Source of the DNA: Promethearchaeum syntrophicum
GTDB lineage: Archaea > Asgardarchaeota > Lokiarchaeia > Sigyniarchaeales > Promethearchaeaceae
Length of the DNA stretch: 32,000 nt
NCBI RefSeq assembly: GCF_008000775.2
Contig: NZ_CP042905.2
Coordinates: 1,920,001 to 1,952,000 of the forward strand
Direction: 5' to 3'
The position numbers and the translations under genes are program-made. Below are positions 3,553 to 21,068 of the stretch, piece by piece. The notes under the pieces are model-generated. The model ran no database searches. It was not told the DNA's origin and saw nothing but the letters and a program-made list of their open reading frames with translations. The stretch's first letter is position 1; each line of letters begins with the position of its first letter.

Positions 3553-4958
3553 GTCTGAATTAGAAGTTTGATTCGTTCTTTAAATTTAGGAAAATGTCTT
3601 TCAAATTTTTTTCTTATATTTTCTTCATTATTTGTTAAAGTAAGGAGATATAGAGAATTATCATCCAAGTTAAAATGATTAAATAGAACCATGCTATTTT
3701 CCATCTGCCAAAGAGCTTGATTTTTTGTGATTAACTTAAAATCTGTGAATGTTCTGAATAAATTTTGAAAATGCGGCGCAGAAATCTCTGAAACAAGTTC
3801 AATATCTTTATCAATTGCATAATCACTTAAAATTAAAGAACTTTCATTAAGTAGAAGCATAGCTTGCGCATTTAATTTCGAAGCAAACCATTGTAATTGA
3901 GCAGCAAAAATTTCTTTATTCGGACTAAGTGCATTAATTCCTTCGGAAAATGATTTATTGAGTGAATAAGCCTCGAAAATGGAAGTGTTGAAGAAATGAA
4001 TTGTAAATCCTGTAGAGAATTCAGTGAATTTTTTCTTTAATTTTTCTAGTTTTGCTTTTAGTTCCGGAGTGTCTGAGATATCAGGATCCATTTTATGGAA
4101 ATTAATTATTATTGGTGGATATTGATTGAAGGCTCTCAATATTCCTATAAGCTTACCGAAATATTCAAAAGATTCTTCAAATCTATTATCATCGCGAATA
4201 TCAATGAAGTAAAATAATAAATTGGTATCATAAAGGTACAGATCTGCATTTTTAATATAAGATCTGCGGTATTTTTCTTGCCCTCCAAGATCCCAATCCA
4301 TTATTTGATGTCCTAATACGTTAATTTCTGATCTTTCTATCCCTTTTGTAGGTCTGATTTCAGTAAGTTCACTAAATTTTTCGTGCAATGCTCGTAAATA
4401 TGAAGTTTTTCCTGAATTTCCCAATCCCACAAAAAGAACTTTTAATTTTCTCGATAATTCAATGGGAGTATTAACTTCTGAAATATAATTCTCCACCTTT
4501 TGAGCTAAAGAATTAATTAAATCTCCAATTTCCTCATGGGAAACACCCTCATAAGCTAGCAATTTTGCTGTTTCGGCAAGCATAATTGATAGTTGTTTTG
4601 TATTTTCATAAAGGAAATATGAACGTTTATCTTCAACTAATAAGGAAATAGTAGCTGCTTTCGCTTTTCCTCTGGCAGATTCATCTTTGATTAAAAAGAA
4701 ATAGGTTAAACCAGTGAGTTCCAAATCAGGAAATGGTAAAATTCCAAAATATTTTACTGAATCGAAGAAATTTCCACCCTGGTAGATTTGTTCACCCATC
4801 AAAAGACTTATAGATTTCATCGCGATAATCATCCGATTGTCTTCAGATATAATATCTGGAACACATATCTTTGGAACTGGGCCTTCTTTTTCAAAAACAG
4901 ATAAAATTATGGTGGATGATGTTTCATTCTTGCTGGAAAAGTCTTTTGTTTCTACCAT
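3543..4958 (-). CDS. three-domain protein: FLCN/DENN-type longin-like domain + Arf/Rag-like small GTPase + C-terminal roadblock-like domain (paralog 1)
   Basis: G1 GLGNSGKT (nt 4404-4427). G3 WDLGGQEKYR. G4 HKMD (nt 4086-4097, verified on the DNA). G5 region FNTSIFEAYSLNKSFSEGINALSPN parallels RagA [22 protein letters not shown]. The C-terminal LLLNESSLILSDY... block is roadblock-like. The N-terminal ~165 aa aligns to the FLCN longin blocks (see findings). Confidence 0.75.
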   Translation of the reverse strand: MVETKDFSSKNETSSTIILSVFEKEGPVPKICVPDIISEDNRMIIAMKSISLLMGEQIYQGGNFFDSVKYFGILPFPDLELTGLTYFFLIKDESARGKAKAATISLLVEDKRSYFLYENTKQLSIMLAETAKLLAYEGVSHEEIGDLINSLAQKVENYISEVNTPIELSRKLKVLFVGLGNSGKTSYLRALHEKFSELTEIRPTKGIERSEINVLGHQIMDWDLGGQEKYRRSYIKNADLYLYDTNLLFYFIDIRDDNRFEESFEYFGKLIGILRAFNQYPPIIINFHKMDPDISDTPELKAKLEKLKKKFTEFSTGFTIHFFNTSIFEAYSLNKSFSEGINALSPNKEIFAAQLQWFASKLNAQAMLLLNESSLILSDYAIDKDIELVSEISAPHFQNLFRTFTDFKLITKNQALWQMENSMVLFNHFNLDDNSLYLLTLTNNEENIRKKFERHFPKFKERIKLLIQTYL

Positions 4959-5927: not shown

Positions 5928-6953
5928 TTAAATAATTCCTTGTAGTAAAGTTATAAAAGAATCGATTTTTTCACGCAAGAGGTGTTCTCCTCTCTTAGGA
6001 GTCATAATAATTAGAAAAAGGGGTTCAGAAGCTCGTTTAATGCGGAATTGATCAGTGAAAAATCGTTTGTTTCCTCGTTCTATAATCATTGATTGTTCCC
6101 CTTGAACGTCATCTTCTAAGGAATCGTTCAGAGTAAGAAAATACGGAGTAGATTTCGTTAATATTTGCTTTGATTCTTCATTCTCGAAAAATTGTCCTAT
6201 TACCAGAGAATTAGAGTCCAAAACTAAGATTGCATTGCAATTTGAATCCAAAGATTCTGCAAATTCTTGGATTGTCTTATCTAATAACTCAGATTGCGGG
6301 AAAATTTTTAACAATAGATCTGAAAATGATGAAATAATTGACCATAAATCGTAAATTGTCGTGTTTGAATAGGAGACATTGAACTCTTCCTCAATAATAT
6401 TACGAATTTCATCTTTCAACTGTGAAATTAATCCTTCTAGATGGATTCCCTCGTTTTTCGCATAAGTTGGGTCAAATTTATGGAAAAATATGTATATTAG
6501 CGGTGAAATTTCTAATTTTCTGAATTCTTTAATTACATCCGAAAAGTATGAAATCGATTCTTCCATCCGTCCTCGATCTTGAATATCAATTACATAAATG
6601 CAGACATTAGATCTATCGAAATACTTCGTCGGCTCTTTTAAATAAGCGATACGGTATTTTTCTTGCCCCCCTAAATCCCATTCAGAAATATCATTTCCTA
6701 AAAATTCGAAAATTTTGCGTTGCGCTTGTCTAGTCGGTTTTAACATGGCAATCTGTGAAATTTCTTTTTGAAGAACCTTAATAATGCTTGTTTTTCCCGA
6801 GTTATCAAGTCCTGTGAAAAGGATCTTCTCGGAAATTTCCCGAGATTTGGTTTTTTTAATGATGAGAGTTTTTTCAAGATCATATTTTATATTCTTTTTT
6901 TTCCCATGAATATCGTGAGAATCTTGCTCAGATTGGATTTTATGTTCAAGCAT
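5928..6953 (-). CDS. Arf/Rag-like small GTPase + C-terminal roadblock-like domain (paralog 2, no longin domain)
   Basis: G1 GLDNSGKT. G3 WDLGGQEKYR. G4 HKFD (nt 6471-6482, verified). G5 NTTIYDLWSIISSFSDLLLKIFPQ. C-terminal AILVLDSNSLVIGQFF... is roadblock-like. Confidence 0.75.
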   Translation of the reverse strand: MLEHKIQSEQDSHDIHGKKKNIKYDLEKTLIIKKTKSREISEKILFTGLDNSGKTSIIKVLQKEISQIAMLKPTRQAQRKIFEFLGNDISEWDLGGQEKYRIAYLKEPTKYFDRSNVCIYVIDIQDRGRMEESISYFSDVIKEFRKLEISPLIYIFFHKFDPTYAKNEGIHLEGLISQLKDEIRNIIEEEFNVSYSNTTIYDLWSIISSFSDLLLKIFPQSELLDKTIQEFAESLDSNCNAILVLDSNSLVIGQFFENEESKQILTKSTPYFLTLNDSLEDDVQGEQSMIIERGNKRFFTDQFRIKRASEPLFLIIMTPKRGEHLLREKIDSFITLLQGII

Positions 6954-7257
6954 TGTATGTATTTTCCCCCACTCAATAAAGTAGTAGTATTATACCCCTA
7001 AAAAGTATTTGTAATTCCTTGTTTACCGATTGATAAATTTCTTAGAATATTTTTAATAATTTCGTTTTGAGAAATATTATTTAATCTGATAATTTACAGA
7101 AATTTTTTTTGATATATAAATGGAAAAAAAAGACGGCTATATAAAATAATGGGATCAATTTGAGAGGATTAATATTTGGATTGGAGTTTTTTAACCCCAC
7201 GAATTTTATGAGAGATGTTCTTCGATTATTGATAGCAATTTAAAGAGGGTATTGGGA

Positions 7258-8091
7258 TTATTTGAGAATTTTAAGTCCATTTGGTAAATCGAATGAAATT
7301 TTTTGGGAGATTTGCAGGAGGGCGGGATCTGTATACGGCAGAGAGTTTTCGAGGATTTTTTGGATGGTGGGGGTGGCTTCATGGATGAGGCGTTCAATGA
7401 GGGCGGGAGGCATGGCGGATGGGTTTGAGATATAATCGTGGGCGAGTTTTTCGACGGGAGTTTTAAAGTATTCGTAGAGGGGAGGGAGGTTTTCGTGAAT
7501 GAAAGCCTTTTGAAGTCGTTCATGATAGATTTGAACTTCTTTAATTTCGTTTGGTTTGGATTCATTTGGGTTGGATTCGAGTGTGCTGAATTTGAGCGGG
7601 TCAGATTCGAGTGTGCTGAATTTGAGTGAGTCAGATTCGAGTGTGTTGAATTTCGATGGTTCGATGGAATCTGAGTTGATGCAGTTTTTAAATAGTTTCA
7701 TACCGTGGGGAGCGAAATCAAAAAGTGTGGAGCTGTCTGTGTAATAAGGAAGTAAGTAGTGAAGAAATGGGAGTGATAAACCCGAGAGTGAGCGAATTTT
7801 TGTAGGAGTATTGAAAATAATTAATGTTTCTGATATTTTGTAATCTTCATTGAACTCATCGAAAATCTTTTTAAAATCCGTGTTTTCGGGGAAAGAGGGG
7901 AATCCTTCGAAGGAGTGGATTAGGCAGTTTTCAAATGTAAATCCAAAGAAACTGTTAGGAAAGGATGACTCTTTAACAAAGGAAAAATCTTTTATGATGT
8001 AATCCTCAACAAATAGGTGGTTATGCTGAATCTTCCCGGGTAAATCGAATGGACCGGCGATTTTAAATTGAACATAATCATCAGATCCCAT
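7258..8091 (-). CDS. hypothetical protein with internal 10-aa tandem repeats; GC-rich relative to surroundings
   Basis: I place the start at the ATG at 8089-8091 (MGSDDYVQFK...). The upstream extension of the track ORF to 8223 is low-complexity F/L-rich sequence that runs through the inverted-repeat arm. No family recognised. Confidence 0.5.
   Translation of the reverse strand: MGSDDYVQFKIAGPFDLPGKIQHNHLFVEDYIIKDFSFVKESSFPNSFFGFTFENCLIHSFEGFPSFPENTDFKKIFDEFNEDYKISETLIIFNTPTKIRSLSGLSLPFLHYLLPYYTDSSTLFDFAPHGMKLFKNCINSDSIEPSKFNTLESDSLKFSTLESDPLKFSTLESNPNESKPNEIKEVQIYHERLQKAFIHENLPPLYEYFKTPVEKLAHDYISNPSAMPPALIERLIHEATPTIQKILENSLPYTDPALLQISQKISFDLPNGLKILK
7574..7663. repeat. 3 x 30-bp in-frame tandem repeat inside CDS 7258-8091
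   Basis: gattcgagtgtgctgaatttgagcgggtca / gattcgagtgtgctgaatttgagtgagtca / gattcgagtgtgttgaatttcgatggttcg. These encode the repeated ..KF(N/S)TLES(D/N).. peptide on the minus strand. Confidence 0.9.
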
Positions 8092-8118
8092 AAATATATT
8101 ATAATAACATAAATATTT

Positions 8119-8196
8119 AATTGTTGTGGGAAGCGGAAATAAAAGCAAAAAAAGCGGAAATAGTTTGAAAAAAGCAGAAAAAAACACAAAAAAATT
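8119..8196. repeat. left arm of a long imperfect inverted repeat (pairs with 8994-9067)
   Basis: aattgttgtgggaagcggaaataaaagcaaaaaaagcggaaatagtttgaaaaaagcagaaa... compared with the reverse complement of the right arm, aattgtggggagcggaaataaaccaaaacaaaatggaaataaaagcaaaaaagcagaaa.... Identity is about 75% over ~75 nt by hand alignment, with anchored blocks agcggaaataaa and aaaaaagcagaaa in the same order. Confidence 0.7.
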
Positions 8197-8460
8197 AATA
8201 CTAAAAAATAAAATTGCTTCCAAAAAAAGATATTACCCAGCTTAAAAAGATAAATCTGTAACTCGTCTTTTTCTATCTTAAGAGGGTTCAAAATATAAGT
8301 GATTTCTAACTTTTCATCAGAAATGTTTTAAATTCATCTGCGAAGCTTCGATTTTGCCAATTTTCATGGACTTCCATTAAAAATCTCCGATATAAATAGC
8401 GAGAAAAAAAACAAATAAAAATTTTTTTTACCCCCCCCATATCACCCATACAAAAAAGAG

Positions 8461-8856
8461 AGTTGCAAATTTATCTTTGTTTTGGCTCTTTTTTTGGACC
8501 TTTTTTAAGTATAGTCTTAGATTTATCTTTGTTTCTGGACCTTTTTTAGGCAAAGTTGCAATTTTATCTTTGCTTCTGGACCTTTTACCAGGCTTTTTTT
8601 AGACTAAGTTGCAAATTTATCTTTTTTTGGGAGCATTTTGAAGCAAAGTTGCAGAATTATCTTTGCTAAAACATCATTAATGTCAAAAATATTGATTTGT
8701 CCATCTTTGTTTAAATGGTGAAATTTGAATTTTAGAGAAAAAAGAGAGTTGCAAATTTATCTTTTGGAATTAAAAATAATCGAAGTTTTTATACCCCTTT
8801 TCCGTAGTATAACCTTTTTTTTTTAGAGAAAAAAAAGAATTATAAATTTATCTTTT
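8461..8856. repeat. array of at least 7 same-orientation copies of a 19-nt motif (consensus AGTTGCAAATTTATCTTTG) in non-coding DNA
   Basis: Copies at 8461, 8513, 8554, 8607, 8647, 8747 and 8838 (spacing 52, 41, 53, 40, 100, 91 nt). The sequences between copies are also related (ctggacctttt). The shorter core TATCTTTG recurs at 8701-8709 and 8945-8953. Confidence 0.85.
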
Positions 8857-8993
8857 GGTAAAAAATCACCACGTAGATTTGAAAGTTTCATTTTTTTACT
8901 GATCCATTTCATTTGAGATTCAATATTTTTTGCATTTATTTCCGTTATCTTTGTTATGAGCCCTTGTTATTAATTCTGGGAAAGAAAAATCAC

Positions 8994-9067
8994 AATTTTT
9001 TGAATTTATTTCTGCTTTTTTGCTTTTATTTCCATTTTGTTTTGGTTTATTTCCGCTCCCCACAATT
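8994..9067. repeat. right arm of the long imperfect inverted repeat (pairs with 8119-8196)
   Basis: Contains three TTTATTTCC/TTTATTTCT units (two TTTATTTCC plus one TTTATTTCT variant), the reverse complement of GGAAATAAA. It ends ...tttatttccgctccccacaatt. Confidence 0.7.
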
Positions 9068-9132
9068 GTATGGGTAAATTTTATGGTGAAAGAATATAAA
9101 AATGGGAGAAAAAAAGAAGACGTAGGTATAAC

Positions 9133-9927
9133 CTATCGGTGAAACGAGACCATCCATGGGTATGGGCTTGGTAGTGGGTACGAAATTTGCACAAAATCCG
9201 GTTTTAGTGCAAAGAACTGGTCGTAAATCTTTCTATTGAAATTGTAGCTTTCCAATAAGCTTTCCTGCACGAACGTCCAATAGTTATTTTGAAGGCGGTC
9301 CCCCCAGTTATAATTCACAAAAGGGTACTGAGTAGCCAGATTATATGTGGATTTTTTTTTCTGATAAAACCAAGTAAAATGATAGTTCGGAACATCGTTG
9401 ATGTAATTTCCGGTCCAATGGATTCCGAATGATCCTTGAATCATTGAAGCATACATTTGATTTGGCTTATTTGTCATACCCCATACTTCCCAATTTTTCC
9501 CATCTATAGGATGTTCATTAAACAGACTCTTCACGAAGTTTTCAAGCGAGAAATCGAAAATCGGGTCGTTGTATGCGTTGTGAAGCCCAATCATGAACCA
9601 TTTAAACTCGGTCTCGGTCATAAGTGGGAAGTCTTTACCGATATGTTGACAATTCCGAAGTATTTGCATTTTTTCGGTAGGAGAATTACAAATATAAATC
9701 ATCGGCATCTTGTCAGCAAGCAGTTGCCCAGCATCCCAATCCTTTGTCTCGATATAACCTCTCTCGTATCCTCCGATCCGTTCAATCGCAACCAGATCGG
9801 TAATTTTTCCTGCTCTATTTTTTAAAGAGAGAAGAAAATCGTAGAAGATGGGTTTATTTTGCGTGCGAAGCATCTGATCAGCGATCCTTAAAGACGTTGT
9901 CATCTTATGCGTTTCACTAAATGTCAC
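9133..9927 (-). CDS. hypothetical protein (264 aa), Trp/Tyr/Asn-rich, no recognisable family; GC-elevated
   Basis: Long uninterrupted ORF with non-repetitive composition. No motif recognised. Confidence 0.5.
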   Translation of the reverse strand: MTFSETHKMTTSLRIADQMLRTQNKPIFYDFLLSLKNRAGKITDLVAIERIGGYERGYIETKDWDAGQLLADKMPMIYICNSPTEKMQILRNCQHIGKDFPLMTETEFKWFMIGLHNAYNDPIFDFSLENFVKSLFNEHPIDGKNWEVWGMTNKPNQMYASMIQGSFGIHWTGNYINDVPNYHFTWFYQKKKSTYNLATQYPFVNYNWGDRLQNNYWTFVQESLLESYNFNRKIYDQFFALKPDFVQISYPLPSPYPWMVSFHR

Positions 9928-9978
9928 TTGAACGGTTTCATCCCCGTGAACAAAGAGAAGATAATCCCAATAACCAAG

Positions 9979-11454
9979 ATGTCTTCCTCATTCAATTCCC
10001 CCATTTGGAATCAGACGTGGGATGGTTCTGCTTACGAGACTGGAACTTCGATCTGGAAGAATGAAAGTTATCTATATACAGCGGGATACACCAATAGTTT
10101 TGGAGCTGGATCTAGTGATCTCTTATTAATTAAATGGAATACTGATGGAAGCCAAATCTGGAATCGGACTTGGGGAGGCGAAGGAATAGAAGTTGGTGTA
10201 ACTGTCTGGGGAGATGAAAATTTTCTATATACAACAGGATACACCGACAGTTTTGGAGCGGGTAATTTTGATCTCTTTCTTATCAAATGGACCACTGAAG
10301 GAAATCAAATCTGGAATAGAACTTGGGGTGGTATGGACGACGATTTTGTTCGATCATTGTGGGGTGATGAAACATATTTATATACAACAGGATTGACAAA
10401 AAGTTTCAGCCCTGCAATATGTGATCTAGTCCTTATCAAATGGACCACTGAAGGAAATCAAATCTGGAATAGAACTTGGGGTGGTATGGATAGTGACATT
10501 GGTAATACTATCTGGGGGGATGAAAGTTTTCTATATACGACAGGATATACTAAAAGTTGTGGAAAAGGGGAAGGCGATCTTTTAATAGTTAAATGGGACA
10601 CCGATGGAACCCAAATCTGGAATCGGACTTGGGGTGGTACTCGTTTAGATTATGTTAATTCCGCATGGGGAAGTGGTTCGTATTTATATTTAACTGGTTA
10701 TACTGGAAGTTATAGTACTAATGATTATGACCTATTTCTAACAAAATGGGACATCGATGGAAATTTAATTTGGGAACAAATATTGAAAGGTTTTAATTAC
10801 GATAGAGGTAAATCTATTTGGAGTGATGGACTAAATTTATATGTACTTGGGACATTAAATACTTTGGGACCAAATATACGGGATTTCTTATTAATTAAAT
10901 GGGATACCGATGGTAACCAAATTTGGAACCAAACTTGGGGATACCCTGAAGATGATTTCGGCTATTCTATTTCGGGAGATGAAATATATTTATATCTGGT
11001 GGGGCATACTAAAAGTTCTTTTGTGAATGAGGGTGCTCTCTTTTTATCTAAAATTCATAAAACTGTTCTTCAAAAACCAATTTTCCAACACATTTCTCCA
11101 AATCCAGATCCCGATGGCAATATAACCTTGAATTGGAATAATGTTGCTGATGCTACATCTTACAGTCTTTATCGAAATACAAATCAAATTCCCAAAATAT
11201 CTGGTTTAGCACCGATTTCGGTATCTGCGACTACATCTTACTCAGACAATAATTTAACGAATAATACGTATTATTATGTAGTAGTTGCTAAAGATGAATA
11301 TCGAAAATCAGATATATCGAATTGTGAATTGGTGGAAGTGCAAATAGTCCCTCCGATTCCTAAAGAAGGTGGAATTTCTGGTTTTCCGTTTGGTTCTCTA
11401 TTATCTATTTGGAGTATGAGTATTATTTTCCTATTAGTAAAGAGAAGAAAATAG
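9979..11454 (+). CDS. surface protein: seven-blade SBBP-type beta-propeller + FN3/Ig-like domain + C-terminal TM anchor with basic tail
   Basis: Seven ~51-aa repeats of the form W(N/E)(R/Q)TWGG..D.G..IWGD..YLYTTGYT.SFG.G..DL.LIKW.T.GNQI. Then NITLNWNNVADATSYSLYR...YYYVVVAKDE (FN3-like). C-terminus SGFPFGSLLSIWSMSIIFLLVKRRK. I prefer the ATG at 9979 over the track start at 9907, which would overlap the divergent gene. Confidence 0.8.
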   Translation: MSSSFNSPIWNQTWDGSAYETGTSIWKNESYLYTAGYTNSFGAGSSDLLLIKWNTDGSQIWNRTWGGEGIEVGVTVWGDENFLYTTGYTDSFGAGNFDLFLIKWTTEGNQIWNRTWGGMDDDFVRSLWGDETYLYTTGLTKSFSPAICDLVLIKWTTEGNQIWNRTWGGMDSDIGNTIWGDESFLYTTGYTKSCGKGEGDLLIVKWDTDGTQIWNRTWGGTRLDYVNSAWGSGSYLYLTGYTGSYSTNDYDLFLTKWDIDGNLIWEQILKGFNYDRGKSIWSDGLNLYVLGTLNTLGPNIRDFLLIKWDTDGNQIWNQTWGYPEDDFGYSISGDEIYLYLVGHTKSSFVNEGALFLSKIHKTVLQKPIFQHISPNPDPDGNITLNWNNVADATSYSLYRNTNQIPKISGLAPISVSATTSYSDNNLTNNTYYYVVVAKDEYRKSDISNCELVEVQIVPPIPKEGGISGFPFGSLLSIWSMSIIFLLVKRRK

Positions 11455-11471
11455 TCCTTGTAGTTTTTATC

Positions 11472-11482
11472 TTTTTTTTTTT
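11472..11482 (+). terminator. oligo-T tract (T11), candidate archaeal intrinsic terminator
   Basis: T11 run 18 nt downstream of the stop at 11454. Confidence 0.35.
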
Positions 11483-11771
11483 ATCGTATCTTTCAGAAAG
11501 TCTATAGTAATCATCAAATCTTTCTAATTTCATCAGAAATATTTAATGAATTAATTGGTAAAGACATGGTTTATGATAACAAACTTTTCCATACAATCTC
11601 CCTCCCTCCAGTTATTTCAATGATACTTTATCACAAATTTTTTGATAAATCGTTATTAAATTCTTCATCTCTTATTTTTTCTGTTTAGAATATAGGGAGA
11701 GACTATAAGAACTAAAGTTAAAATTAATTTTCTTAGATTATTTTGAAATTATAATTGAGTTTGATTAAAAG

Positions 11772-12311
11772 ATGGGATTAGAATGTAGCAAATGTGGATT
11801 AAAAATGGAGACCAAACCTCTAGATTGTGGGTATAGTATGACTATGAACAATGAAACCAACCAATGGGAATGTAATATGGGAAAATGTGGAGTAATTTCG
11901 TTTGAAAATTTTCTCTGTGAAAATTGTTGTGTCAACAGTAGTATAATGGAAATTTTTAATGGATTTGAGCGCTTAGCGAAAGAAAACCTTGAATTTCGTG
12001 AAGAATTAGAAGAGTTAAAAACGACTTTTGTTCAAATTAGTTTATCAAATCCCGATTTTACGTATTGGGTGGAATTTGGGAACTGTAAATTTAAAGTTGG
12101 ATGGGGAGAAATAAGTAATGCAACAATTAAAATTAGGTGCTCTCAAGACGTTTGGAGCAAAATTCTTTCTGGGAAAGCAGTAAGTTTTATCGAATTTTTC
12201 AAAAGAAATCTTAAAATTGAGGGAGATCTTCAATATGGGGTTTTATACCTTGATTTACTTGAATTAGCTTCGGAAATTAGCCAAGATAAAGGAGTGTTAA
12301 ATAATGAATAA
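11772..12311 (+). CDS. Cys-rich zinc-ribbon N-terminus fused to SCP2 sterol-carrier/lipid-binding domain
   Basis: N-terminus CSKCG...C...CNMGKCG...CENCC. C-terminus NATIKIRCSQDVWSKILSGKAVSFIEFFKRNLKIEGDLQYGVLYLDL parallels the SCP2 block ..TI.M...DF..L..GK.....AFF.GKLKI.G.....A.KL..L. Confidence 0.7.
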   Translation: MGLECSKCGLKMETKPLDCGYSMTMNNETNQWECNMGKCGVISFENFLCENCCVNSSIMEIFNGFERLAKENLEFREELEELKTTFVQISLSNPDFTYWVEFGNCKFKVGWGEISNATIKIRCSQDVWSKILSGKAVSFIEFFKRNLKIEGDLQYGVLYLDLLELASEISQDKGVLNNE

Positions 12312-13056
12312 AACTGTCGTGTGGGGCCATAGGGGTGCGGGTTTTAGGGGAATCGAAAATACAATGCCATCATTTAAGAAAGCAGTTGATATGGGTGTTG
12401 ATGGTATTAAAACCGAAGCGCAACATTCAAAAGATGGGAAAATATTTTTGAGTTCTCAGGAAAGTTTAAAAAGAAATGGCGAATATGTAGCCTTTAAGGA
12501 TATGGATAGTAAAGAGATTAACAACTTAAGAACAGATAATAATAAAGAAGTTCTATCTCTCACTGAACTATTCAACGAATTTAAAGGTAAAAATATCCGT
12601 TATAATTTCGATATCAAAGAGCCTGAGATTGGTATAAAAATTATTGAAATTGCACGTCAGTTTAATTTAGTTGATAAAATCGAGTTAGCGAAAACAGCGA
12701 CGGATTCTTCTCCGCTGCCAAAAATCTTTGGTAAAATTAGAGAATTCGATCAGGATGTTACCTTAATAAATAGTTTATTTCTAAAGAATGCAACTAATGA
12801 GAAAAACCATCTCGAATTAGAGAGCATGCGAGAATTAAATATCCAAGGGATTAATGTGAAATATAATTATGCAAATTTTGAATTATTTAAATTGGTTAAA
12901 GACAACGGATTTAAATTCTATGTGTGGGGGGTCCTCTTTAATAGATCAATGCAAAAACTTTTAAAGATGAATTACAATGGTCAATCAGTAGATTCTATGA
13001 TGTCAAATTTTCCTGATCGATTAGTCCGATTAAGAAATAAATTTCAAACAAGCTAA
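12304..13056 (+). CDS. glycerophosphodiester phosphodiesterase (GDPD) family protein
   Basis: VVWGHRGAGFRGIENTMPSFKKAVDMGVDGIKTEAQHSKDGKIFL matches the GDPD N-terminal HRG...ENT...A...G.D.iE.D...skDg signature. It overlaps the upstream gene by 8 nt (ATGAATAA). Confidence 0.75.
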   Translation: MNKTVVWGHRGAGFRGIENTMPSFKKAVDMGVDGIKTEAQHSKDGKIFLSSQESLKRNGEYVAFKDMDSKEINNLRTDNNKEVLSLTELFNEFKGKNIRYNFDIKEPEIGIKIIEIARQFNLVDKIELAKTATDSSPLPKIFGKIREFDQDVTLINSLFLKNATNEKNHLELESMRELNIQGINVKYNYANFELFKLVKDNGFKFYVWGVLFNRSMQKLLKMNYNGQSVDSMMSNFPDRLVRLRNKFQTS

Positions 13057-13159
13057 GAATTTTTTAACTAGCAAATTTTTTTATCCTACTTTTACACCCA
13101 TAAAGATTATTGTAATTTTTTCCTTGATTTTGAGTAATTCTTCAAAATTCATTATTAAA

Positions 13160-13681
13160 TTAAGGTTTTATGAGGTTATTTAAAATATTTATTGCTTCTT
13201 CGGGTGTTTGAGCGTTAATTATTTCATCTTTTCTTTTATTATCGATTTTGCTATCTGCTAATTTTGCCGACCATCCACCAGTTGTGCTTAGTGAGACAAT
13301 TTTTTTGCCCATTTTCCAAGCAAAAGCAATTTCGCTTAATGTTCCACTCTCACCAGCGATTGTAATAATTGCATCTGCAGTGGATACTAAAATTAAATTG
13401 CGTGCTTCCCCCATCCCAGTCGGAATGATGAGATCAACATAACTATTGGCAGATTTTTTATCTAAACTAGGAAGGAACCCAATCGTAAAACCTTGCTCGG
13501 ATTTTGCCCCTTTACAGACTGCCTCCATTACACCAAATCGACCTCCACAAACTAAAGCAAAATTTTCCTTTGCAATTAATCTTCCCAATTTTTCGGCAGT
13601 TTTGTAGATTTCGTCATCTAATTCTCCAGAGCCAGAGCCTATTACTCCTATTAGACCATTAAATTCAGAAAACTGTTTCAA
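13160..13681 (-). CDS. LOG-family / TIGR00725-type Rossmann-fold protein
   Basis: IGVIGSGSG..., VCGGRFGVMEA and AGESGTLSEIAFA correspond to the GGGxxGxM and PGGxGTxxE motifs of the LOG family. Apparent TTG start overlaps the upstream stop (TTGA). Confidence 0.7.
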   Translation of the reverse strand: MKQFSEFNGLIGVIGSGSGELDDEIYKTAEKLGRLIAKENFALVCGGRFGVMEAVCKGAKSEQGFTIGFLPSLDKKSANSYVDLIIPTGMGEARNLILVSTADAIITIAGESGTLSEIAFAWKMGKKIVSLSTTGGWSAKLADSKIDNKRKDEIINAQTPEEAINILNNLIKP

Positions 13682-14664
13682 AAATATTCCTCCAAAAGAA
13701 TTTCTTCATTTTCTCCATATTTTAAGCGAATTTCATTTTTATCTTGGACTTCTCCAATTTCATAGAATTTCATATTTGCATTATACACTAAGTCAATTAA
13801 TTCATTTTTCGTTTCATTTTTACCAGATATCAAAAATCCAGAGGTTAGAAACAAGAAAATGAATTGTTCAGTAGAAAATTGTAAATTATCTGAAATTATA
13901 TGTGATTCTAAAATATTTAAATCAATTTTTGCTCCTAGTTTCGCATATTGCATCATCTGGAATAAGGTTCCCAGAATCCCCCCATTGGATATATCCTTAC
14001 ATGCTGTAATATATTTCTTGTCAATTGCTGGGGATAAAAATGATCGTTTATGGAAAAATTCCTCACTGCTTTTCATAGTGATTGTGTTCCAATAATTTTT
14101 ATTTGTAGCTGACGTTTTTCCATCAGGATCCCAAACAACTGCTAAAAAATCACCTGAATTTGATCCTCCTGCTGATAAATAATGTTCTACTGTAGTATTT
14201 CCAATGATTGTCGAAGAGATTGCTAAAGATGGAGAATCTGTAGTTGTATGACCGCGAATTAATGGAGTTTTAAAAACTTTTGTTGCGTCTAATACCCCAG
14301 AAAAGATTTTTTTACCAATATTATCATCGCCATATGCAATTGTAATGGTACTTGCTAAAGGAGTTCCACCACAAGCAAAAATATCATCAATTCCAACATA
14401 AATCGCTGAAAAACCAGCACCATATGGGGATTTTTCGATAAATGTTGGGAGAAGTGCATCGGTTGTTAAAAGGATTAAATCTTTAGATGTGGGTGTTAGC
14501 TGAATTGCTGCTGAATCTTCACCATGACTTGCATAAATTTGTGAAGAATTATAGCCATTTGCGCGAATCTTTTCTAATATTGGTATTAATTTTCTCTTTT
14601 CTTGAATATTTCTTGAATTTTCAAATTTATCAACAATTGAATGTAAGTTCATCTCTTTAATCAT
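13678..14664 (-). CDS. AIR synthase-related protein (PurM/ThiL/HypE/SelD superfamily)
   Basis: HGEDSAAIQL...LLTTDAL...GFSAIYVGIDDIFACGGTPLA is the N-terminal ATP-grasp-like PurM-family dimerisation/active-site pattern. The C-terminal domain CKDISNGGILGTL is typical. Confidence 0.7.
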   Translation of the reverse strand: MIKEMNLHSIVDKFENSRNIQEKRKLIPILEKIRANGYNSSQIYASHGEDSAAIQLTPTSKDLILLTTDALLPTFIEKSPYGAGFSAIYVGIDDIFACGGTPLASTITIAYGDDNIGKKIFSGVLDATKVFKTPLIRGHTTTDSPSLAISSTIIGNTTVEHYLSAGGSNSGDFLAVVWDPDGKTSATNKNYWNTITMKSSEEFFHKRSFLSPAIDKKYITACKDISNGGILGTLFQMMQYAKLGAKIDLNILESHIISDNLQFSTEQFIFLFLTSGFLISGKNETKNELIDLVYNANMKFYEIGEVQDKNEIRLKYGENEEILLEEYF

Positions 14665-14753: not shown

Positions 14754-16280
14754 ATGAAAAAAAATTTACTCTTTCCATTTGACGATTTATTGGTTAAAGG
14801 AGCGATCTTTTCGATCTATGGAAGCATGGGTCCTGAGGCTGTTTTTTTTTATCCATTTCCTAGCGATTCAACATATTCTTTTCCAGAAATGGATAATCAT
14901 GCATCCAGTAAATTTGAACAAAGGAATTACATGCAAATTGCGGTTAAAAGTATTTCTTTGCTTTTAGTTGATTATTCTTTTGAAGATGAAAAGAATCTCC
15001 AACTGAAAGATGTTCATATATTTGGAGTTTTGCCCTATCCCGATTTAAATTGCATTGGTCTCACATATTTTACATATTTCTTCTCCCAAGAAAGAAAAAG
15101 GTTTATTCCTGTTTCTCTTTCATTACTAGTTCATGAAAATAAAAGGAGTTTTATCTATGATTCGATTAATCGGTTGAAAAAACCAACAAAGGATTTTACA
15201 CAATATTTAATCGAATTATGTATTAAAAATAAGATATATTCAGAACTTGAAGGACAAGATTATTGGGAAAATGTATTAACTAAATTTATTGATTTCTTTG
15301 GTGAAATTCAAAAAATACAGAATCAACCAATCAGCCCAATTACTAAAAAGAGAAGGATTAAGATATTATTTACAGGTTTGGAGAATACAGGAAAAACTAG
15401 TTTTATTTTAACAGTCAAACGAAAATTTAGCGGATTACCAACAATTTTACCGAGTACGGAACCAATGAACGAACCTTTAAATTTCTTAGGAACAACGATA
15501 ATGAAATGGGATATTCCGGGTAAAAAAGATTTCAGAAAAGCTATATTAGAAAATTCTGAATTATATTTATTTGAATCTGATGTTATTTACTATTTTATTG
15601 ATGTTATGGCCCCTAGAATAGATGAATCTCTTGAGTTTTTAGCGAAAGTTATGGATAAACTGCATGAATATGAGAGTAAAATTCCGATTGTCTTCATAAT
15701 TACGAAAGTTGATGAAGATGTCGCAGATTCCATTGAAATTAAAGATGCTATCGCTGAAATACGGCAATCACATCTAAAAATTATTGGAGATCATCCATAT
15801 AAATTCTTTAACACTTCCATATTTTCGATTTACTCAGTGTTAAATGCATTTTCATATGGACTTCGCAATCTATCCCCAAACCGGGAAATGATAGAACATC
15901 TTTTATGGGGATTTTTGGCTCGGAATGAATTTGTTACTGGTTTATTAGTCAATGAGAGCGGTTTAGTCCTTGCTGCACAACAAGTTAATGTCAAAGGACC
16001 AGAAGATGTCTTAAACCGTAAACAAATTTTTGAAATTGCCGCTCCACAATTTGCAATACTTGCTAAACAATTCCAAAGTTTTGATGATAAGATTAGTGAT
16101 ACAATAAAATACCAATTTTCGGAAAAAGATATAATCATTTTGAAGCGATTCATTGTTGAAGATTTTGCATTTTTCTATATATTTTATACAAAAAAACCAG
16201 AATCATTGAAAAATTTAGAAAAAAACTTTCCAGAATTTCTTGATCGGATAAGAAATCTTCTCTTGCTATATATTAAATAA
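14754..16280 (+). CDS. three-domain protein: FLCN/DENN-type longin-like domain + divergent Arf/Rag-like GTPase + roadblock-like domain (paralog 3)
   Basis: Collinear with paralog 1 over the full length: AIFSIYGSMGPEAVFFYPFP / MQIAVKSISLLLVD / FGVLPYPDLNCIGLTYF / LSLLVHENKRSFIY. G1 GLENTGKT. G3 WDIPGKKDF (nt 15510-15524, Gln replaced by Lys). G4 TKVD (15702-15713). G5 FNTSIFSIYSVLNAFSYGLRNLSPN. Roadblock-like GLLVNESGLVLAAQQ. Confidence 0.7.
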   Translation: MKKNLLFPFDDLLVKGAIFSIYGSMGPEAVFFYPFPSDSTYSFPEMDNHASSKFEQRNYMQIAVKSISLLLVDYSFEDEKNLQLKDVHIFGVLPYPDLNCIGLTYFTYFFSQERKRFIPVSLSLLVHENKRSFIYDSINRLKKPTKDFTQYLIELCIKNKIYSELEGQDYWENVLTKFIDFFGEIQKIQNQPISPITKKRRIKILFTGLENTGKTSFILTVKRKFSGLPTILPSTEPMNEPLNFLGTTIMKWDIPGKKDFRKAILENSELYLFESDVIYYFIDVMAPRIDESLEFLAKVMDKLHEYESKIPIVFIITKVDEDVADSIEIKDAIAEIRQSHLKIIGDHPYKFFNTSIFSIYSVLNAFSYGLRNLSPNREMIEHLLWGFLARNEFVTGLLVNESGLVLAAQQVNVKGPEDVLNRKQIFEIAAPQFAILAKQFQSFDDKISDTIKYQFSEKDIIILKRFIVEDFAFFYIFYTKKPESLKNLEKNFPEFLDRIRNLLLLYIK

Positions 16281-16292
16281 AAAAAAGAAGTC

Positions 16293-17012
16293 TTAATCAT
16301 AATCAGTTTTATAGGTAGAATCTTCTTGCGTTTTTTCTATTTTTTGTTCTTCTTCATCTTGAGAATTCTCAGAATTCATCGTTTCTGCTACTTTCTTATA
16401 ATCTGATCTCTCTTTGATCATCGCTTTTAATTCATCACCAATCCAGATCAAAGACATTATAAATTCTGGGACATATTTGTGCATGATAAGAACACAAGCA
16501 ACTGCTATAAATGAGCTGGCGGCAGAAATGGGATAATGAACCGAATCCCAATCCGCCCCACGTTGATATAGATATAATTGCAAAACCATTCTGAAAATAT
16601 TCACCACGTAAAATACTAATGAGGTTACCAACATTGCGATGATCTTTCTTTTCCAAATATCTTTACTTGTTTCTTTATTGATCGAATGTGGTACACAAAG
16701 AATAGCCCCAACAAAAATGGCGATTGCATGAACTCCTGTGCATAAAGTTTCAAAATGAATATCACTTCGCGTCCCAGGTAAATGGATTATCCACGGTTGA
16801 GTAAGATCATAATCATTAAAATATACGACATTTTCTGCACCGCTCAAAAGATTTAGAATCCAAATAGTTATTTTTGCAGATATTTCATGAAGCCAAACCC
16901 AATTATGTGAGATCCAAATTCCATAAGCAATTATTGGTGCTCCAATGAATAAAATTGCAATAGAAAGCCATTTAAAATCGTAATTTTTTCCTTCATATTC
17001 AATATTTCCCAT
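16293..17012 (-). CDS. polytopic membrane protein, exosortase/archaeosortase-like
   Basis: Multiple TM helices with candidate Cys/Arg/His signature positions in the order found in exosortase/archaeosortase families: ETLCTGVHAIAIF (C-x-G), VVNIFRMVLQLY (N..R), WDSVHYPIS (His). Acidic C-terminal tail. Confidence 0.45.
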   Translation of the reverse strand: MGNIEYEGKNYDFKWLSIAILFIGAPIIAYGIWISHNWVWLHEISAKITIWILNLLSGAENVVYFNDYDLTQPWIIHLPGTRSDIHFETLCTGVHAIAIFVGAILCVPHSINKETSKDIWKRKIIAMLVTSLVFYVVNIFRMVLQLYLYQRGADWDSVHYPISAASSFIAVACVLIMHKYVPEFIMSLIWIGDELKAMIKERSDYKKVAETMNSENSQDEEEQKIEKTQEDSTYKTDYD

Positions 17013-17144: not shown

Positions 17145-18731
17145 ATGAAAAAACCCAATGTATTCATTCGAGGAATTTACAGTACAGCTCTTACCAAATT
17201 GTTTATTGATGCAGGATATCCAATAATATTTCCATCAAAAGAAATTCAAACTCGATTTAAAATCCCCTTTCGCCCAATTGATAGTTATAGTAAAGATATT
17301 AGTATCAGGGATCGTCTCGATAAACAAGGCGTAAGTATCATGTTTAAGAAATCAGTATGGAATAAACTAGAAGAAAATAATTTTGAAGATTTTCCGTTAT
17401 GGCAAACGCATAATCCTAATCTTATTGTTTACAATGCTCGATTTCAAAAAAATTCAATATACAGGGGGTTAATAATTAAATCTAATCGTCAAAATAATTT
17501 TTCTTATATCAGATTAGCTCCTGAAGATATCGATAAAGACGGTTTTGAAGAAGAAAGTTCATACAGCACTACGATTGGGAATTATTCTCATTTTATACCT
17601 GATGCAAAAGAAGGGATATTTCAAGTCACCCATGAAGATTCGGGAGTAATTAATCCTTCATTAGGCTCTTTCTTTACAATTCCAGGAGATTTAGTTGTAA
17701 TCGTCCCCTATAATGATAGAGTAATTATCAGTAAAGAAATTATTAATGGAAGGAAAAAGAAATGGTTATTCGATCTCGGAAAAGATATTCAGAGAACAAA
17801 GAAATATGGATTCATTTTTAGAACTGCTGCAGCGCTTGCAAGTGAGAAAGAAATTTTAGAAGAAGTTGATAAATTAGAAGAAGATTTGATTCAAACTCAA
17901 AACACCATCACAAAATATCCTGAAAAAATTGGAGAAATCTTTTCCAACTATCATTCGATAAATGTCATTTTTCCCCGACAGATAAAGAATTCCTTCGATG
18001 ATGTAAGACGACAAATGCTCCCTACCATGGAATCTCATCACATTATTAAAGCTAATCCAAAAATTAACCAATATAAAAGATTTTACAAAACTAAAGATGA
18101 TAAACCTTCTTTTGAGAAAAAAATTCAAGAAAATGAAATTAAATTTACACCTAGCGATCTACTTACATTTACAGAGAATTTAATGTATGGTTTAGATAAA
18201 AGGGCAAATGAAAAAATATGTCGAAATTATTTGAAGCAATATTATAATGATTTTCTAAAACCCCGAAAAATCCTCAATATATTACATCAGAAATTGAATG
18301 GAAAAACAATCAAATTAGCACCAGGAAGTATCCATTCCATTGAATATGAGTCTGGAAGGCCCCACCTTATTGTTCTGAAGCGAAAATTACGAGAAGGTGG
18401 TCTTTATGATGGGCTAAATACTCCGATTGAAATGGGGGATTATGCAATTGGAAAGTATACTATTGGTAATTGGTATTATATGTCAACCTACTATTCTAAG
18501 AAAAATGAGATAAAAGGGCGCTATTATAATATAAATACTCCCATCGAATTATCTCATCAGGGAATTCGCTATATTGATTTGGAGATTGATGTAGTAGAGA
18601 ATATGATTGGAGAAAGGAAAATCATTGATCAAGAATATCTAGATAAAACTTTAAATTTAAACATTATATCACAAGAATTATATGATAAAGCGTTCGGTGT
18701 AGCAGAAAATATATTAGAGGGCAGAATTTAA
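17145..18731 (+). CDS. fau-1: FAU-1-type probable ribonuclease / RNA-binding protein (RNase E/G-like N-terminus, DUF402-like C-terminus)
   Basis: The N-terminus FIRGIYSTALTKLFIDAGYPIIFPS matches my memory of archaeal FAU-1 (RIRGIYATALTKL..d.GF.iv.ps). The C-terminus GRYYNINTPIE...IRYIDLEIDV is the DUF402 pattern. Confidence 0.7.
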   Translation: MKKPNVFIRGIYSTALTKLFIDAGYPIIFPSKEIQTRFKIPFRPIDSYSKDISIRDRLDKQGVSIMFKKSVWNKLEENNFEDFPLWQTHNPNLIVYNARFQKNSIYRGLIIKSNRQNNFSYIRLAPEDIDKDGFEEESSYSTTIGNYSHFIPDAKEGIFQVTHEDSGVINPSLGSFFTIPGDLVVIVPYNDRVIISKEIINGRKKKWLFDLGKDIQRTKKYGFIFRTAAALASEKEILEEVDKLEEDLIQTQNTITKYPEKIGEIFSNYHSINVIFPRQIKNSFDDVRRQMLPTMESHHIIKANPKINQYKRFYKTKDDKPSFEKKIQENEIKFTPSDLLTFTENLMYGLDKRANEKICRNYLKQYYNDFLKPRKILNILHQKLNGKTIKLAPGSIHSIEYESGRPHLIVLKRKLREGGLYDGLNTPIEMGDYAIGKYTIGNWYYMSTYYSKKNEIKGRYYNINTPIELSHQGIRYIDLEIDVVENMIGERKIIDQEYLDKTLNLNIISQELYDKAFGVAENILEGRI

Positions 18732-18812: not shown

Positions 18813-21068
18813 ATGGTTTTACACACAATAAGCGATAAGTTGAAATTATTAGGTAATAAGAAAAATTCTAGTATTTTTAAACTTGATATGATTCCAGGTA
18901 TAGGGAAGAAAATCCAAGAAAGACTTAAAAAATTCTATATTACAGAAAGTAATGCTTTAAATGCAATAGAAGCGGGGGTTACGGGTATTGTTCCTGGAAT
19001 TTCGTATAAACAAGCGTTAAAATATGCTCAATATTACTTTCAGATTCATGAAAATATTGTAAAAGAAGATATTTTAGTAACCCAAGATATTAGAGATATT
19101 TATAGTAAAATTATTGATCTTATTTCAGAATATACTCATACAAATTATTCAAAACTTAAGCTACAATTATATTTTCCCCTACCATCAAATAAACTTACTC
19201 TTCTTAAGGAAAGACAAGAATACTTTGGGAAATCTATCGAATTTTATAAAAAATATGTTGAAATTCTAGAAGAAAAAGAACTACCATTGTTTCTATCTAA
19301 ATTGGATGATCTAAAACAAACAGAGGACATTCATAAAATCTCCAATCGACTTATAATAACTGATTCTAAACAAGTTGAGAGATACCTGCAAGAAGAAAAT
19401 ATTGACGATTTCGTTAAGATTGAAATTATTGATTTGAATAAAATTAGTAATTGGGATACATTTTTTAAAGAATATTGTGATAATTTTGATGTGGTTATCT
19501 ATTGTGGCAACCATTCCCATGATTTACCTGCCTTTGGGAATTTAATTTCTTTAAATTCCAAAGAATTTTCAACAGAATCACTAATTCCTGAAAAAATTAT
19601 TAGATTTTTTTCCTTAAATAAATCTCTCATTCATTCTATGATTAAAATCATAGTTATTTTAAAGAACCTCAAAGAAGACCATTTAATTTCCAAATTTTTA
19701 GATATGATTGAGATAAAATCTATCAAAGATCTAAAAGAAAAAACAAAAATTCTAGATGATTTTGGAGAGATTATCCCAGGAATAAATGATGAGCTGGATG
19801 AATTCCGCAGAGTTTCTAAGGATTTCACATCTTTAATACATGAAACTGAAAATCAAATAAATGAAAATATTAAAAAAGAGATTAGCGAGAGATCTATAAA
19901 AATTCAAGGAAAACAGATATTAGATTTAATTCGGACTGATGTAACTCTTGAGAACATTCGTAATTATATTCCCGCTGAAGTTGATGATTTAATTAATGAA
20001 AAGGTCCAAAGTGGTTTACTAAATTTAGAAAAACAGTTAAAATTGAAAAAGCTTGACGGAAATATTGCAGCTAACTTAATGCCTGAGTTAATTGAATTTC
20101 CTATTCAATTAAATGAGAAGGAACTTGATTCATTAGAGAAGAAAATAAATTCGAGATATAACACCGCTAAATATTATGAAATGGTTCGTATAGCAAAAGT
20201 TCTAAGTAAAAATCAAGAATATTTATTAAAACTCCATCAAACTCTACTGGAATTTGATTTTTTCTATGCAATCGGGAATTTTGCCTTCGATTATCATTTA
20301 TCGATTCCAGAATTAGATGAAACAAATCATGGTTTCTATGGGAAAGAATTGATTAATTTAAACCTACAGAAAGCGGCATTGTCTGGAGACATAGATTCTA
20401 TTTCGATTACAGATATTTTTAATCCAGTTCCTATTAATTATCAATTAGGTGATATTGTAGGCTCTTCTTCTCACCATTTATCTAAGGGATCTCTGAATTT
20501 ACTAACTGGAAGCAATTCAGGAGGGAAAACAATGTGTATAATTACCTGTAGTGAAAGTATAATCCTTGCTCAAATGGGGTTTCCTTCCTTAGGTCATTTT
20601 AAATTTCATCCATTTGATGAGATCTATTTCTTTAAAAAATCAAATGGCCAATTAAGTGCAGGAGCTTTTGAAACAACACTTCTTCAATTTGTTCAACTCG
20701 CTCAATCATCAAAACTTAAAGTAGTTTTTGCTGATGAATTAGAATCTATTACAGAACCAAATGCCGCTTCAAAAGTCATTTCTGGAATCTTCTCGCTGTT
20801 TTTAACAAATCCAAATAATTATGGTGTTTTTGTTACCCATTTAGTTGATTTGTTACAACGAGAAATAAATTCTGACCAACGTAAGAATATTAGAATTGAT
20901 GGAATTGAAGCTACTGGGTTGGATAAAAACCTTCAATTAATTGTTGATCGAAGCCCCCGATTTAATTATGTTGCAAAATCAACGCCTGAATTAATATTAA
21001 AACGATTAGCTCAGTCAGGCACATCAGATCAAAGGAAATTTTTCAGTTCTCTCTTAGATAAGTTTTAG
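18813..21068 (+). CDS. archaeal MutS2-like ATPase (MutS domain V), N-terminal HhH
   Basis: Walker A LLTGSNSGGKTMCIITCSESIILAQMG. Walker B/MutS block VVFADELESITEPNAASKV. N-terminal IPGIGKKIQERLKKFY is HhH-like. Confidence 0.75.
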   Translation: MVLHTISDKLKLLGNKKNSSIFKLDMIPGIGKKIQERLKKFYITESNALNAIEAGVTGIVPGISYKQALKYAQYYFQIHENIVKEDILVTQDIRDIYSKIIDLISEYTHTNYSKLKLQLYFPLPSNKLTLLKERQEYFGKSIEFYKKYVEILEEKELPLFLSKLDDLKQTEDIHKISNRLIITDSKQVERYLQEENIDDFVKIEIIDLNKISNWDTFFKEYCDNFDVVIYCGNHSHDLPAFGNLISLNSKEFSTESLIPEKIIRFFSLNKSLIHSMIKIIVILKNLKEDHLISKFLDMIEIKSIKDLKEKTKILDDFGEIIPGINDELDEFRRVSKDFTSLIHETENQINENIKKEISERSIKIQGKQILDLIRTDVTLENIRNYIPAEVDDLINEKVQSGLLNLEKQLKLKKLDGNIAANLMPELIEFPIQLNEKELDSLEKKINSRYNTAKYYEMVRIAKVLSKNQEYLLKLHQTLLEFDFFYAIGNFAFDYHLSIPELDETNHGFYGKELINLNLQKAALSGDIDSISITDIFNPVPINYQLGDIVGSSSHHLSKGSLNLLTGSNSGGKTMCIITCSESIILAQMGFPSLGHFKFHPFDEIYFFKKSNGQLSAGAFETTLLQFVQLAQSSKLKVVFADELESITEPNAASKVISGIFSLFLTNPNNYGVFVTHLVDLLQREINSDQRKNIRIDGIEATGLDKNLQLIVDRSPRFNYVAKSTPELILKRLAQSGTSDQRKFFSSLLDKF

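Follow-up and report, generated by a model that had tools for sequence, protein, structure and literature searches.

Free variation at the switch-II glutamine position of a longin-bearing Rag-like GTPase within the family of Promethearchaeum syntrophicum

Three genes for Rag-like GTPases, here called paralogs 1, 2 and 3 (P1, P2 and P3), lie in a 32,000-nucleotide stretch of the Promethearchaeum syntrophicum genome (contig NZ_CP042905.2, positions 1,920,001 to 1,952,000), which is referred to below as the window. The window is AT-rich, with about 30% G+C, and is part of a single-contig genome of 4.32 Mb. P3, the main subject here, combines a longin domain, a Rag/Gtr-like G domain and a roadblock domain in one chain, and has lysine at the switch-II position where P1 and P2 have the catalytic glutamine. 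Comparison with orthologs shows that this position, alone among the sites conserved throughout the Rag-like paralogs, has become free to vary in the family to which the window belongs. The three genes and the features of P3 are as follows, in window coordinates and with protein positions in amino acids (aa).

14754-16280, plus strand: P3, a 508-aa protein with longin, Rag/Gtr-like G domain and roadblock (from the translation)
14781-15323, plus strand: N-terminal longin domain of P3, about aa 10-190 (from the structure model and fold matches)
14829-14834, plus strand: GP motif G26-P27 of the P3 longin (from its invariance in the alignment)
15081-15104, plus strand: P3 longin loop FSQERKRF, aa 110-117, opposite the ARG (arginine-finger) motif of P2
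15375-15398, plus strand: G1 or P-loop of P3, GLENTGKT, aa 208-215 (from a motif scan of six frames and position mapping)
15510-15524, plus strand: G3 or switch II of P3, D253-I-P-G-K257, with K257 (AAA, nucleotides 15522-15524) at the catalytic-Gln position
15702-15713, plus strand: G4 of P3, TKVD, aa 317-320 (from the motif scan; K318 and D320 invariant in orthologs)
15813-15821, plus strand: G5 region of P3, T354-S-I within NTSIF (aa 353-357), a motif common to Rag-like paralogs, with T354 invariant and TSIF shared by all orthologs
15879-16277, plus strand: roadblock domain of P3, aa 376-508 (from predicted secondary structure and structural alignments)
5928-6953, minus strand: P1, G domain and roadblock, with DLGGQ and HKFD
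3543-4958, minus strand: P2, longin (GP and ARG finger motif), G domain and roadblock, with DLGGQ and HKMD

The domain layout of P3 is seen both in profile searches and in structure prediction. Pfam PF04670 (Gtr1_RagA) matches P3 at 65.9 bits (cut-off 22; E = 4.7e-18), aligning aa 203-414 with positions 1-218 of the 232 in the profile, and a search of the NCBIfam profiles gave no match. An AlphaFold2 (AF2) model of the full protein, made with 55 homologs, has a predicted local distance difference test score (pLDDT) of 83 and a predicted template-modelling score of 0.80, and it divides into a longin-type domain (aa 14-190), a G domain (aa 202-371) and a roadblock (aa 377-507), the last composed of helix 377-390, strand region 395-410, helix 422-443, strand region 450-479 and helix 484-507. 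In a Foldseek search of the PDB with P3, the best matches are to 8YL2, and then to RagA/RagC and Gtr1, over 300-330 columns covering the G domain and the roadblock, with target-normalised template-modelling scores of 0.70-0.75. P3 has 27 full-length orthologs in the protein database (31-90% identity), and in every genus examined its reading frame runs uninterrupted over the whole length. Among congeners its ratio of nonsynonymous to synonymous substitution rates (dN/dS) is 0.064-0.070, lower than the 0.11-0.12 of P2. Given this Pfam score, the full-length orthologs and the low dN/dS, P3 is a real gene under purifying selection and not one that is decaying. An initial annotation of the locus had placed DIPGK and TKVD in P3, and DLGGQ and HKxD in P1 and P2; a six-frame motif scan with position mapping found the P3 motifs exactly there, mapping GLENTGKT and TSI in addition, and P1 and P2 do carry DLGGQ together with HKFD and HKMD, respectively.

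The switch-II Gln (Ras Q61, RagA Q66, RagC Q120) positions the attacking water, and the initial annotation had named, as a check, whether its replacement by Lys is fixed among P3 orthologs. The ortholog alignment shows that it is not. Seven residues (Q, K, N, S, A, M and T) follow DIPG in the 27 protein-database orthologs; among the five nearest relatives, at 84-90% identity, four have Q. Codon 257 is AAA in the window and CAA in three congeneric genomes, a single C-to-A change. Because these three congeners read DIPGQ, the ortholog state that the initial annotation had taken as a sign of strain-specific drift, Lys257 is strain-level variation at a relaxed site and does not represent a fixed Q-to-K replacement.

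Extending the comparison to the class, 151 genomes were searched, and full-length relatives were found in the window's family (Promethearchaeum/Lokiarchaeum) and in a large sister family. The P3 proteins of the two families form one clade in a quick LG+G4 tree, with a Shimodaira-Hasegawa-like approximate likelihood ratio (SH-aLRT) support of 99 (60 rows). Judged by this support and by synteny in six of six loci, the sister-family proteins are true orthologs of P3. Gln is kept in all 63 sister-family orthologs examined (61 with WDLGGQ, two with WDLSGQ), as it is in every P1 and P2 ortholog of the window's family but one. The 31 members of the window family's DxPG clade, by comparison, have Q in 15 cases, K in nine, N and S in two each, and M, T and A in one each, giving an entropy of 2.0 bits. 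By parsimony, site 257 changed at least 12 times in the DxPG clade and not once in the sister family, which puts it in the top 16% of G-domain sites.

Site 257 can be set against the rest of the protein by following the 31 alignment sites that are conserved in three reference clades (sister-family P3, P1 and P2) into the 31-member DxPG clade. Twenty-nine of these sites hold there, including G208, G213, K214, T215 (T or S), D253, G256, K318, D320 and T354; the first four are retained by all 31 members. The other two are G255, which shows a fixed change to P, and Q257, which is free. Across these alignments, then, no universally conserved Rag-like site other than the Gln position has turned freely variable in the window's family. 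Fixed differences between the window's family and the sister family cluster at the phosphate site, comprising D to E at 210, S to T at 212, L to K at 251 and G to P at 255. Within the window's family, the P3 orthologs of genera g5 and g7 are without DxxG: L051 (G089:C134) reads WDV-NKR, and L080 (G135:C148) reads YGLENE and has GFRHTGKS as its P-loop. Both retain G1, [ST]KxD, TSIF and the GP motif.

Some observations concern the range of P3 itself. Genus g5 has a form of 573 aa that contains an insertion within the longin region. In genus g3 the search turned up no P3 ortholog, the best match there having E = 4.7e-34. The best matches in family f3 (L081-L083) were considered as P3 orthologs and rejected; they carry HKx[DE] and DL[GA]GQ.

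That P3 is a decaying gene, or that its Lys is a sequencing error, we hold to be very improbable. The difference between K in the window and Q in the congeners is indeed a single base, but no genus examined has a broken or shortened frame, dN/dS is about 0.065, and 29 of the 31 universal sites are conserved. In addition, Lys is found independently in nine orthologs, and the genome is a single closed contig.

The same data bear on a second explanation, in which P3 is fully active and independent of Gln, its catalytic residue being located elsewhere in cis or supplied in trans by a GTPase-activating protein (GAP) or a dimer partner, so that variation at residue 257 is without consequence. Rap with RapGAP, the HAS-GTPases and the dimerisation-activated GTPases are models for Gln-independent enzymes. 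Consistent with this explanation, site 257 varies under strong purifying selection on P3, the concerted fixed changes at positions 210, 212, 251 and 255 could mark a rebuilt active site, and the conserved finger-bearing longin of P2 is encoded in the same block of genes. However, sites that gained constraint are mostly conservative exchanges, and none of the positions from which the gamma-phosphate is known to be reached has acquired a conserved polar residue. That two genera have lost the whole DxxG speaks for a decaying switch and against a new catalytic device. HAS-GTPases, moreover, have a hydrophobic residue at this position, whereas the states in P3 are mostly polar. We regard full, Gln-independent activity as rather unlikely, although as an alternative to be reckoned with.

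The G4 motif had also been taken as altered in the initial annotation, with T replacing the H of HKxD. The classical guanine-specificity motif is [NT]KxD or [ST]KxD, and [ST]KxD is present in all aligned P3 orthologs of both families; these counts are alignment-based, a regular expression misfiring on 6 of the 63 sequences (for example L030, FKQD by regular expression and SKGD when aligned). By its distribution, [ST]KxD is the ancestral G4 of the whole P3 orthogroup, including the sister family that keeps Gln, and is not a defect. It is the H of HKxD that is peculiar, in this case to P1 and P2. Eukaryotic Rags also have this H.

The N-terminal domain of P3 is recognised by structure. When this domain alone was run against Pfam for 24 orthologs, no significant family was found. 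Modelled alone, the P3 domain has a pLDDT of 87.7, with strands at 14-23 and 26-33. Its VIA Z scores are 17.5 against the Lokiarchaeal longin dimer 8YQG, 12.3 against C9orf72-SMCR8, 11.9 against the longin of Lst4 and 10.8 against FLCN-FNIP2; against other longins they are 10.8 (TRAPP) and 10.6 (VAMP7). The top non-Asgard matches in Foldseek are all GATOR1, Lst4 or FLCN-FNIP2. Across 55 sequences of the P3 and P2 groups, G26-P27 does not vary. This GP motif, which precedes the second strand of the longin, is specific to the GAP-type longins FLCN, NPRL2, SMCR8 and C9orf72, among which C9orf72 has GP without a finger (PMC12290439).

In a three-way alignment, the P2 segment IKDESARG stands opposite FSQE-RKRF of P3, as the initial annotation had it. 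P2 orthologs of both families share an invariant D..ARG.AKA loop. The P3 loop at aa 110-117 is variable and has no fixed Arg in 31 window-family and 24 sister-family orthologs, the ARG motif is absent from all 63 sister-family P3 orthologs, and P3 has no counterpart to the arginine finger of GAP longins (FLCN R164, NPRL2 R78, SMCR8 R147). Since the loop is without a fixed Arg in both families, the finger-less longin of P3 is old and predates the relaxation of Gln. With GP kept and the finger lacking, which is the pattern described in PMC12290439, the longin of P3 is by analogy of the C9orf72-like non-catalytic type, and that of P2 of the SMCR8/FLCN-like type. The interpretation given in the initial annotation stands in part: P3 is the odd one of the three paralogs at the catalytic centre and in the longin loop, and the asymmetry is an evolutionary one that does not depend on a single sequence. 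A fixed Q-to-K change and an altered G4 are not supported, and the analogy with the Rags is a loose one.

Genus g3 has a P2-like protein, L043 (G039:C11:29838-30986), which adjoins P1 and keeps ARG, its own switch II reading WDYKPK. The retention of ARG despite this switch II hints that the P2-like finger may act in trans, on another G domain.

The three GTPase genes belong to a block of which the order is the same in six of six loci from both families: a 428-aa gene, P2, a 250-aa gene, P1, a SLOG/TIGR00725 gene, an AIR-synthase-like gene and the divergent P3. The two genes closest to P3 in this block are as follows.

13160-13681, minus strand: SLOG/TIGR00725 gene (Pfam LDcluster4; NCBIfam TIGR00725 at 150 bits)
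13678-14664, minus strand: AIR-synthase-like gene (Pfam AIRS/AIRS_C; NCBIfam matches to methan_mark_2 and sll0787-like below cut-off)

These genes overlap by 4 bp, and the pair is divergent from P3 and about 90 bp from it. The pair lies beside P3 in all six loci compared (L074-L079), in two families, and is a conserved marker of P3 orthology. We know of no functional link between the pair and the GTPase.

In the window, about 6 kb (approximately 6954-13159) separate P1 from the SLOG gene, with open reading frames at 7258-8223, 9133-9927, 9907-11454, 11772-12311 and 12304-13056. The congeners are missing this stretch: in L077, about 290 bp lie between P1 and the SLOG gene. From this comparison, the stretch is either a strain-specific insertion or a loss in the congeners. 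The reading frames 9907-11454 and 17145-18731 were considered as GTPase paralogs and rejected, the one as a repeat-rich surface protein and the other as an RNase E/G-DUF402 protein. The former (plus strand, 515 aa) contains at least six repeats of about 45 aa of the form IWNRTWGG...LYTTGYT, and its C-terminus, with a Gly/Pro-rich stretch, a hydrophobic helix and KRRK, resembles a sorting signal of the sortase type. The gene for an archaeosortase H (16293-17012, minus strand; NF041736 at 286 bits) lies 5 kb from the repeat protein, and the two may be an enzyme-substrate pair. The RNase E/G and DUF402 protein (17145-18731, plus strand) is FAU-1-like and seems ordinary; its gene adjoins P3 in the congener locus L077 too. 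Further on, 18813-21068 (plus strand) encodes a 751-aa protein with a C-terminal P-loop, GSNSGGKT, which looks MutS-like and seems ordinary as well. Of these two genes, the one for RNase E/G is kept beside P3 in L077.

P1 is identical to PDB chain 8YL2_A at 340 of 340 residues. The title of that entry, released on 2025-09-10, is 'Homo Tetrameric RagA-like small GTPase from Asgard Lokiarchaeota (LokiRagO) in complex with GTP', and a second Lokiarchaeal Rag-like protein, 'LokiRagM', is found in entries 8ZLA and 9M28. A literature search for 8YL2, 8ZLA and 9M28 and for the names LokiRagO and LokiRagM found no paper in the library searched. Going by the entry title, P1 crystallised with GTP as a homotetramer, and in vitro, therefore, it does not behave as an obligate subunit of a heterodimer.

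This result bears on a third explanation, also raised in the initial annotation, according to which P3 pairs obligately with P1 or P2 in a Rag-like heterodimer and serves as its nucleotide-locked, regulatory half, the two subunits joining through the roadblocks and, in the case of P2, through the longins as well. Linkage of the three genes in a block conserved in two families agrees with such a pairing, as does the complementarity of P2 (GP and ARG) and P3 (GP only, relaxed Gln). Eukaryotic Rags and longin GAP complexes pair a catalytic with a non-catalytic subunit (PMC12290439). The main text of Tran et al. 2024 (Commun Biol, PMC10933270) catalogues 74 small GTPases of MK-D1, including the longin-GTPase-roadblock layout, and predicts roadblock-mediated dimers, among them a heterodimer for another MK-D1 Rag-like pair. 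On the other hand, the genes do not form one operon: in the window they are separated by 8-11 kb that include unrelated genes, and they lie on opposite strands. Homo-oligomers are what the structures describe, both for P1 and for a Lokiarchaeal longin, which is a homodimer by the title of 8YQG. The analogy with RagA/B and RagC/D, which the initial annotation drew for the loss of Gln, does not hold for real Rag pairs, in which both subunits keep this residue: in the PDB chains, human RagA has WDCGGQ and human RagC has WDFPGQ. Finally, because the sister-family P3 keeps Gln with the same linkage, linkage and Gln loss are uncoupled. We consider an obligate heterodimer of this kind to be unlikely.

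The reading that we favour, and that on balance is probably correct although we hold it with modest confidence, is that P3 is a functional, nucleotide-binding Rag-like GTPase in which a remodelling of the catalytic centre, dating to the base of the family, was followed by release of the Gln site. Residues for binding of nucleotide and Mg2+ are retained in G1, in the switch-I Thr/Ser, in D253 and G256 of G3, in [ST]KxD and in TSI. At the base of the window's family, remodelling would have changed D to E and S to T in the P-loop and DLGG to DIPG in switch II. From that point onward the residue at the catalytic-Gln position would have been free, K257 being one recent state. P3 would bind GTP/GDP, and its hydrolysis would no longer rely on a Gln in cis. 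Since the switch-II Gln is established as the residue that positions the attacking water, P3 may be a slow or non-hydrolysing, nucleotide-loaded subunit, or may rely on residues supplied in trans. Its GP-type, finger-less longin would be the non-catalytic, C9orf72-like counterpart to that of the linked P2, which bears the finger.

Several points weigh against this reading. About half of the P3 orthologs, including the three congeners, still have Gln, and for this reason the site may be tolerant and not useless, with normal hydrolysis in many species. Intrinsic hydrolysis may also be slow in the whole group, in which case loss of Gln would matter less, since the Gln-bearing P1 crystallised with GTP according to the title of 8YL2. 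The sister-family comparison is made with one large and closely related family, so that its 63 sequences are not independent, and the tree, which comes from a quick LG+G4 search, has long branches where the degenerate members are placed.

A wider proposal, which we put forward as speculative and quite unlikely to be right in full, is that P2 and P3 form a heterodimer through their roadblock and longin domains. The SMCR8/FLCN-like longin of P2, with its finger, and the C9orf72-like longin of P3, with GP only, would together make a composite GAP pocket acting on P1 (LokiRagO) or on the partner's own G domain. Such an arrangement would prefigure, in a prokaryote and at a single locus, the eukaryotic logic of Rag plus FLCN-FNIP, GATOR1 or C9orf72-SMCR8, and the G domain of P3 in the Promethearchaeum family would be on its way to becoming a non-hydrolysing, nucleotide-sensing scaffold.

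The architecture of P3 was already catalogued by Tran et al. 2024 (PMC10933270), probably with this very protein among the entries, and the main text of that paper contains no discussion of the catalytic Gln, of lineage-specific relaxation, of a finger-less longin or of a conserved three-paralog block. What is new here is the release of the Gln site, and of no other, from constraint at the level of a family, with the canonical state in the syntenic sister family and loss of DxxG in two genera. The corrections of the readings as a fixed Q-to-K change, as an altered G4 and as RagC-like ancestry are likewise new. Rag GTPases and longin-domain GAPs (GATOR1, FLCN-FNIP, C9orf72-SMCR8) are the core of eukaryotic lysosomal nutrient signalling, and Asgard archaea are, to our knowledge, the only prokaryotes with the building blocks of both. 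The locus offers a concrete biochemical set in a cultured organism: a canonical and crystallised P1, a P2 with a finger-bearing longin, and a finger-less P3 in which Gln has been released from selection in one family, its sister family having kept it. Orthologs with DLGGQ, with DIPGQ or DIPGK, and without DxxG are natural controls for asking when and how a Rag-like switch turns into a non-catalytic partner.

Several known systems can be compared with P3. The Rag-like GTPases described by Tran et al. (PMC10933270, main text) come from the same group of organisms and have the same order of longin, Rag/Arf-like G domain and roadblock. The nearest solved structures are LokiRagO (8YL2) and LokiRagM (8ZLA/9M28), with a sequence match of E = 4.7e-23 over aa 195-410 of P3. 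In contrast to P3, 8YL2 is without a longin, keeps DLGGQ and HKFD, and is titled a homotetramer with GTP.

The eukaryotic Rag/Gtr proteins (RagA/B, RagC/D, Gtr1 and Gtr2) likewise have a G domain followed by a C-terminal roadblock, in accordance with the PF04670 match of P3, but P3 has an additional N-terminal longin, and in G4 it has TKVD where P1 and P2 have HKxD. In switch II, P3 has DIPGK where RagA and RagC have DxxGQ with Gln. The DxPG of P3 does resemble the WDFPGQ of RagC. A RagC-like ancestry of DxPG was considered and rejected, as the syntenic sister-family orthologs have DLGGQ. Because of this sister-family state, the likeness to RagC is convergent, having arisen within the window's family from a DLGGQ ancestor. 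On these grounds DxPG is not an ancestral RagC trait, just as Lys is not a fixed signature of P3.

With the non-catalytic longin subunits (C9orf72, the partner of SMCR8; FNIP/Lst4; NPRL3), P3 shares the longin fold, the GP motif, the absence of a finger and a finger-bearing paralog nearby. It differs from the C9orf72-type subunits in that its longin shares one chain with a GTPase and a roadblock, with no DENN module and no WD motif beside GP. Lastly, atypical GTPases and pseudoGTPases without the switch-II Gln include Rap with Thr61, the Rnd proteins and the HAS-GTPases, in which the replacement residue is fixed and characteristic. P3 has in common with them an intact nucleotide-binding core and a non-Gln residue at the catalytic position. 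Its position is unconstrained, however, with seven residue types among which Gln is still the commonest, and there is no fixed hydrophobic residue as in the HAS-GTPases, the states being Q, K, N, S and T together with a single A and a single M.

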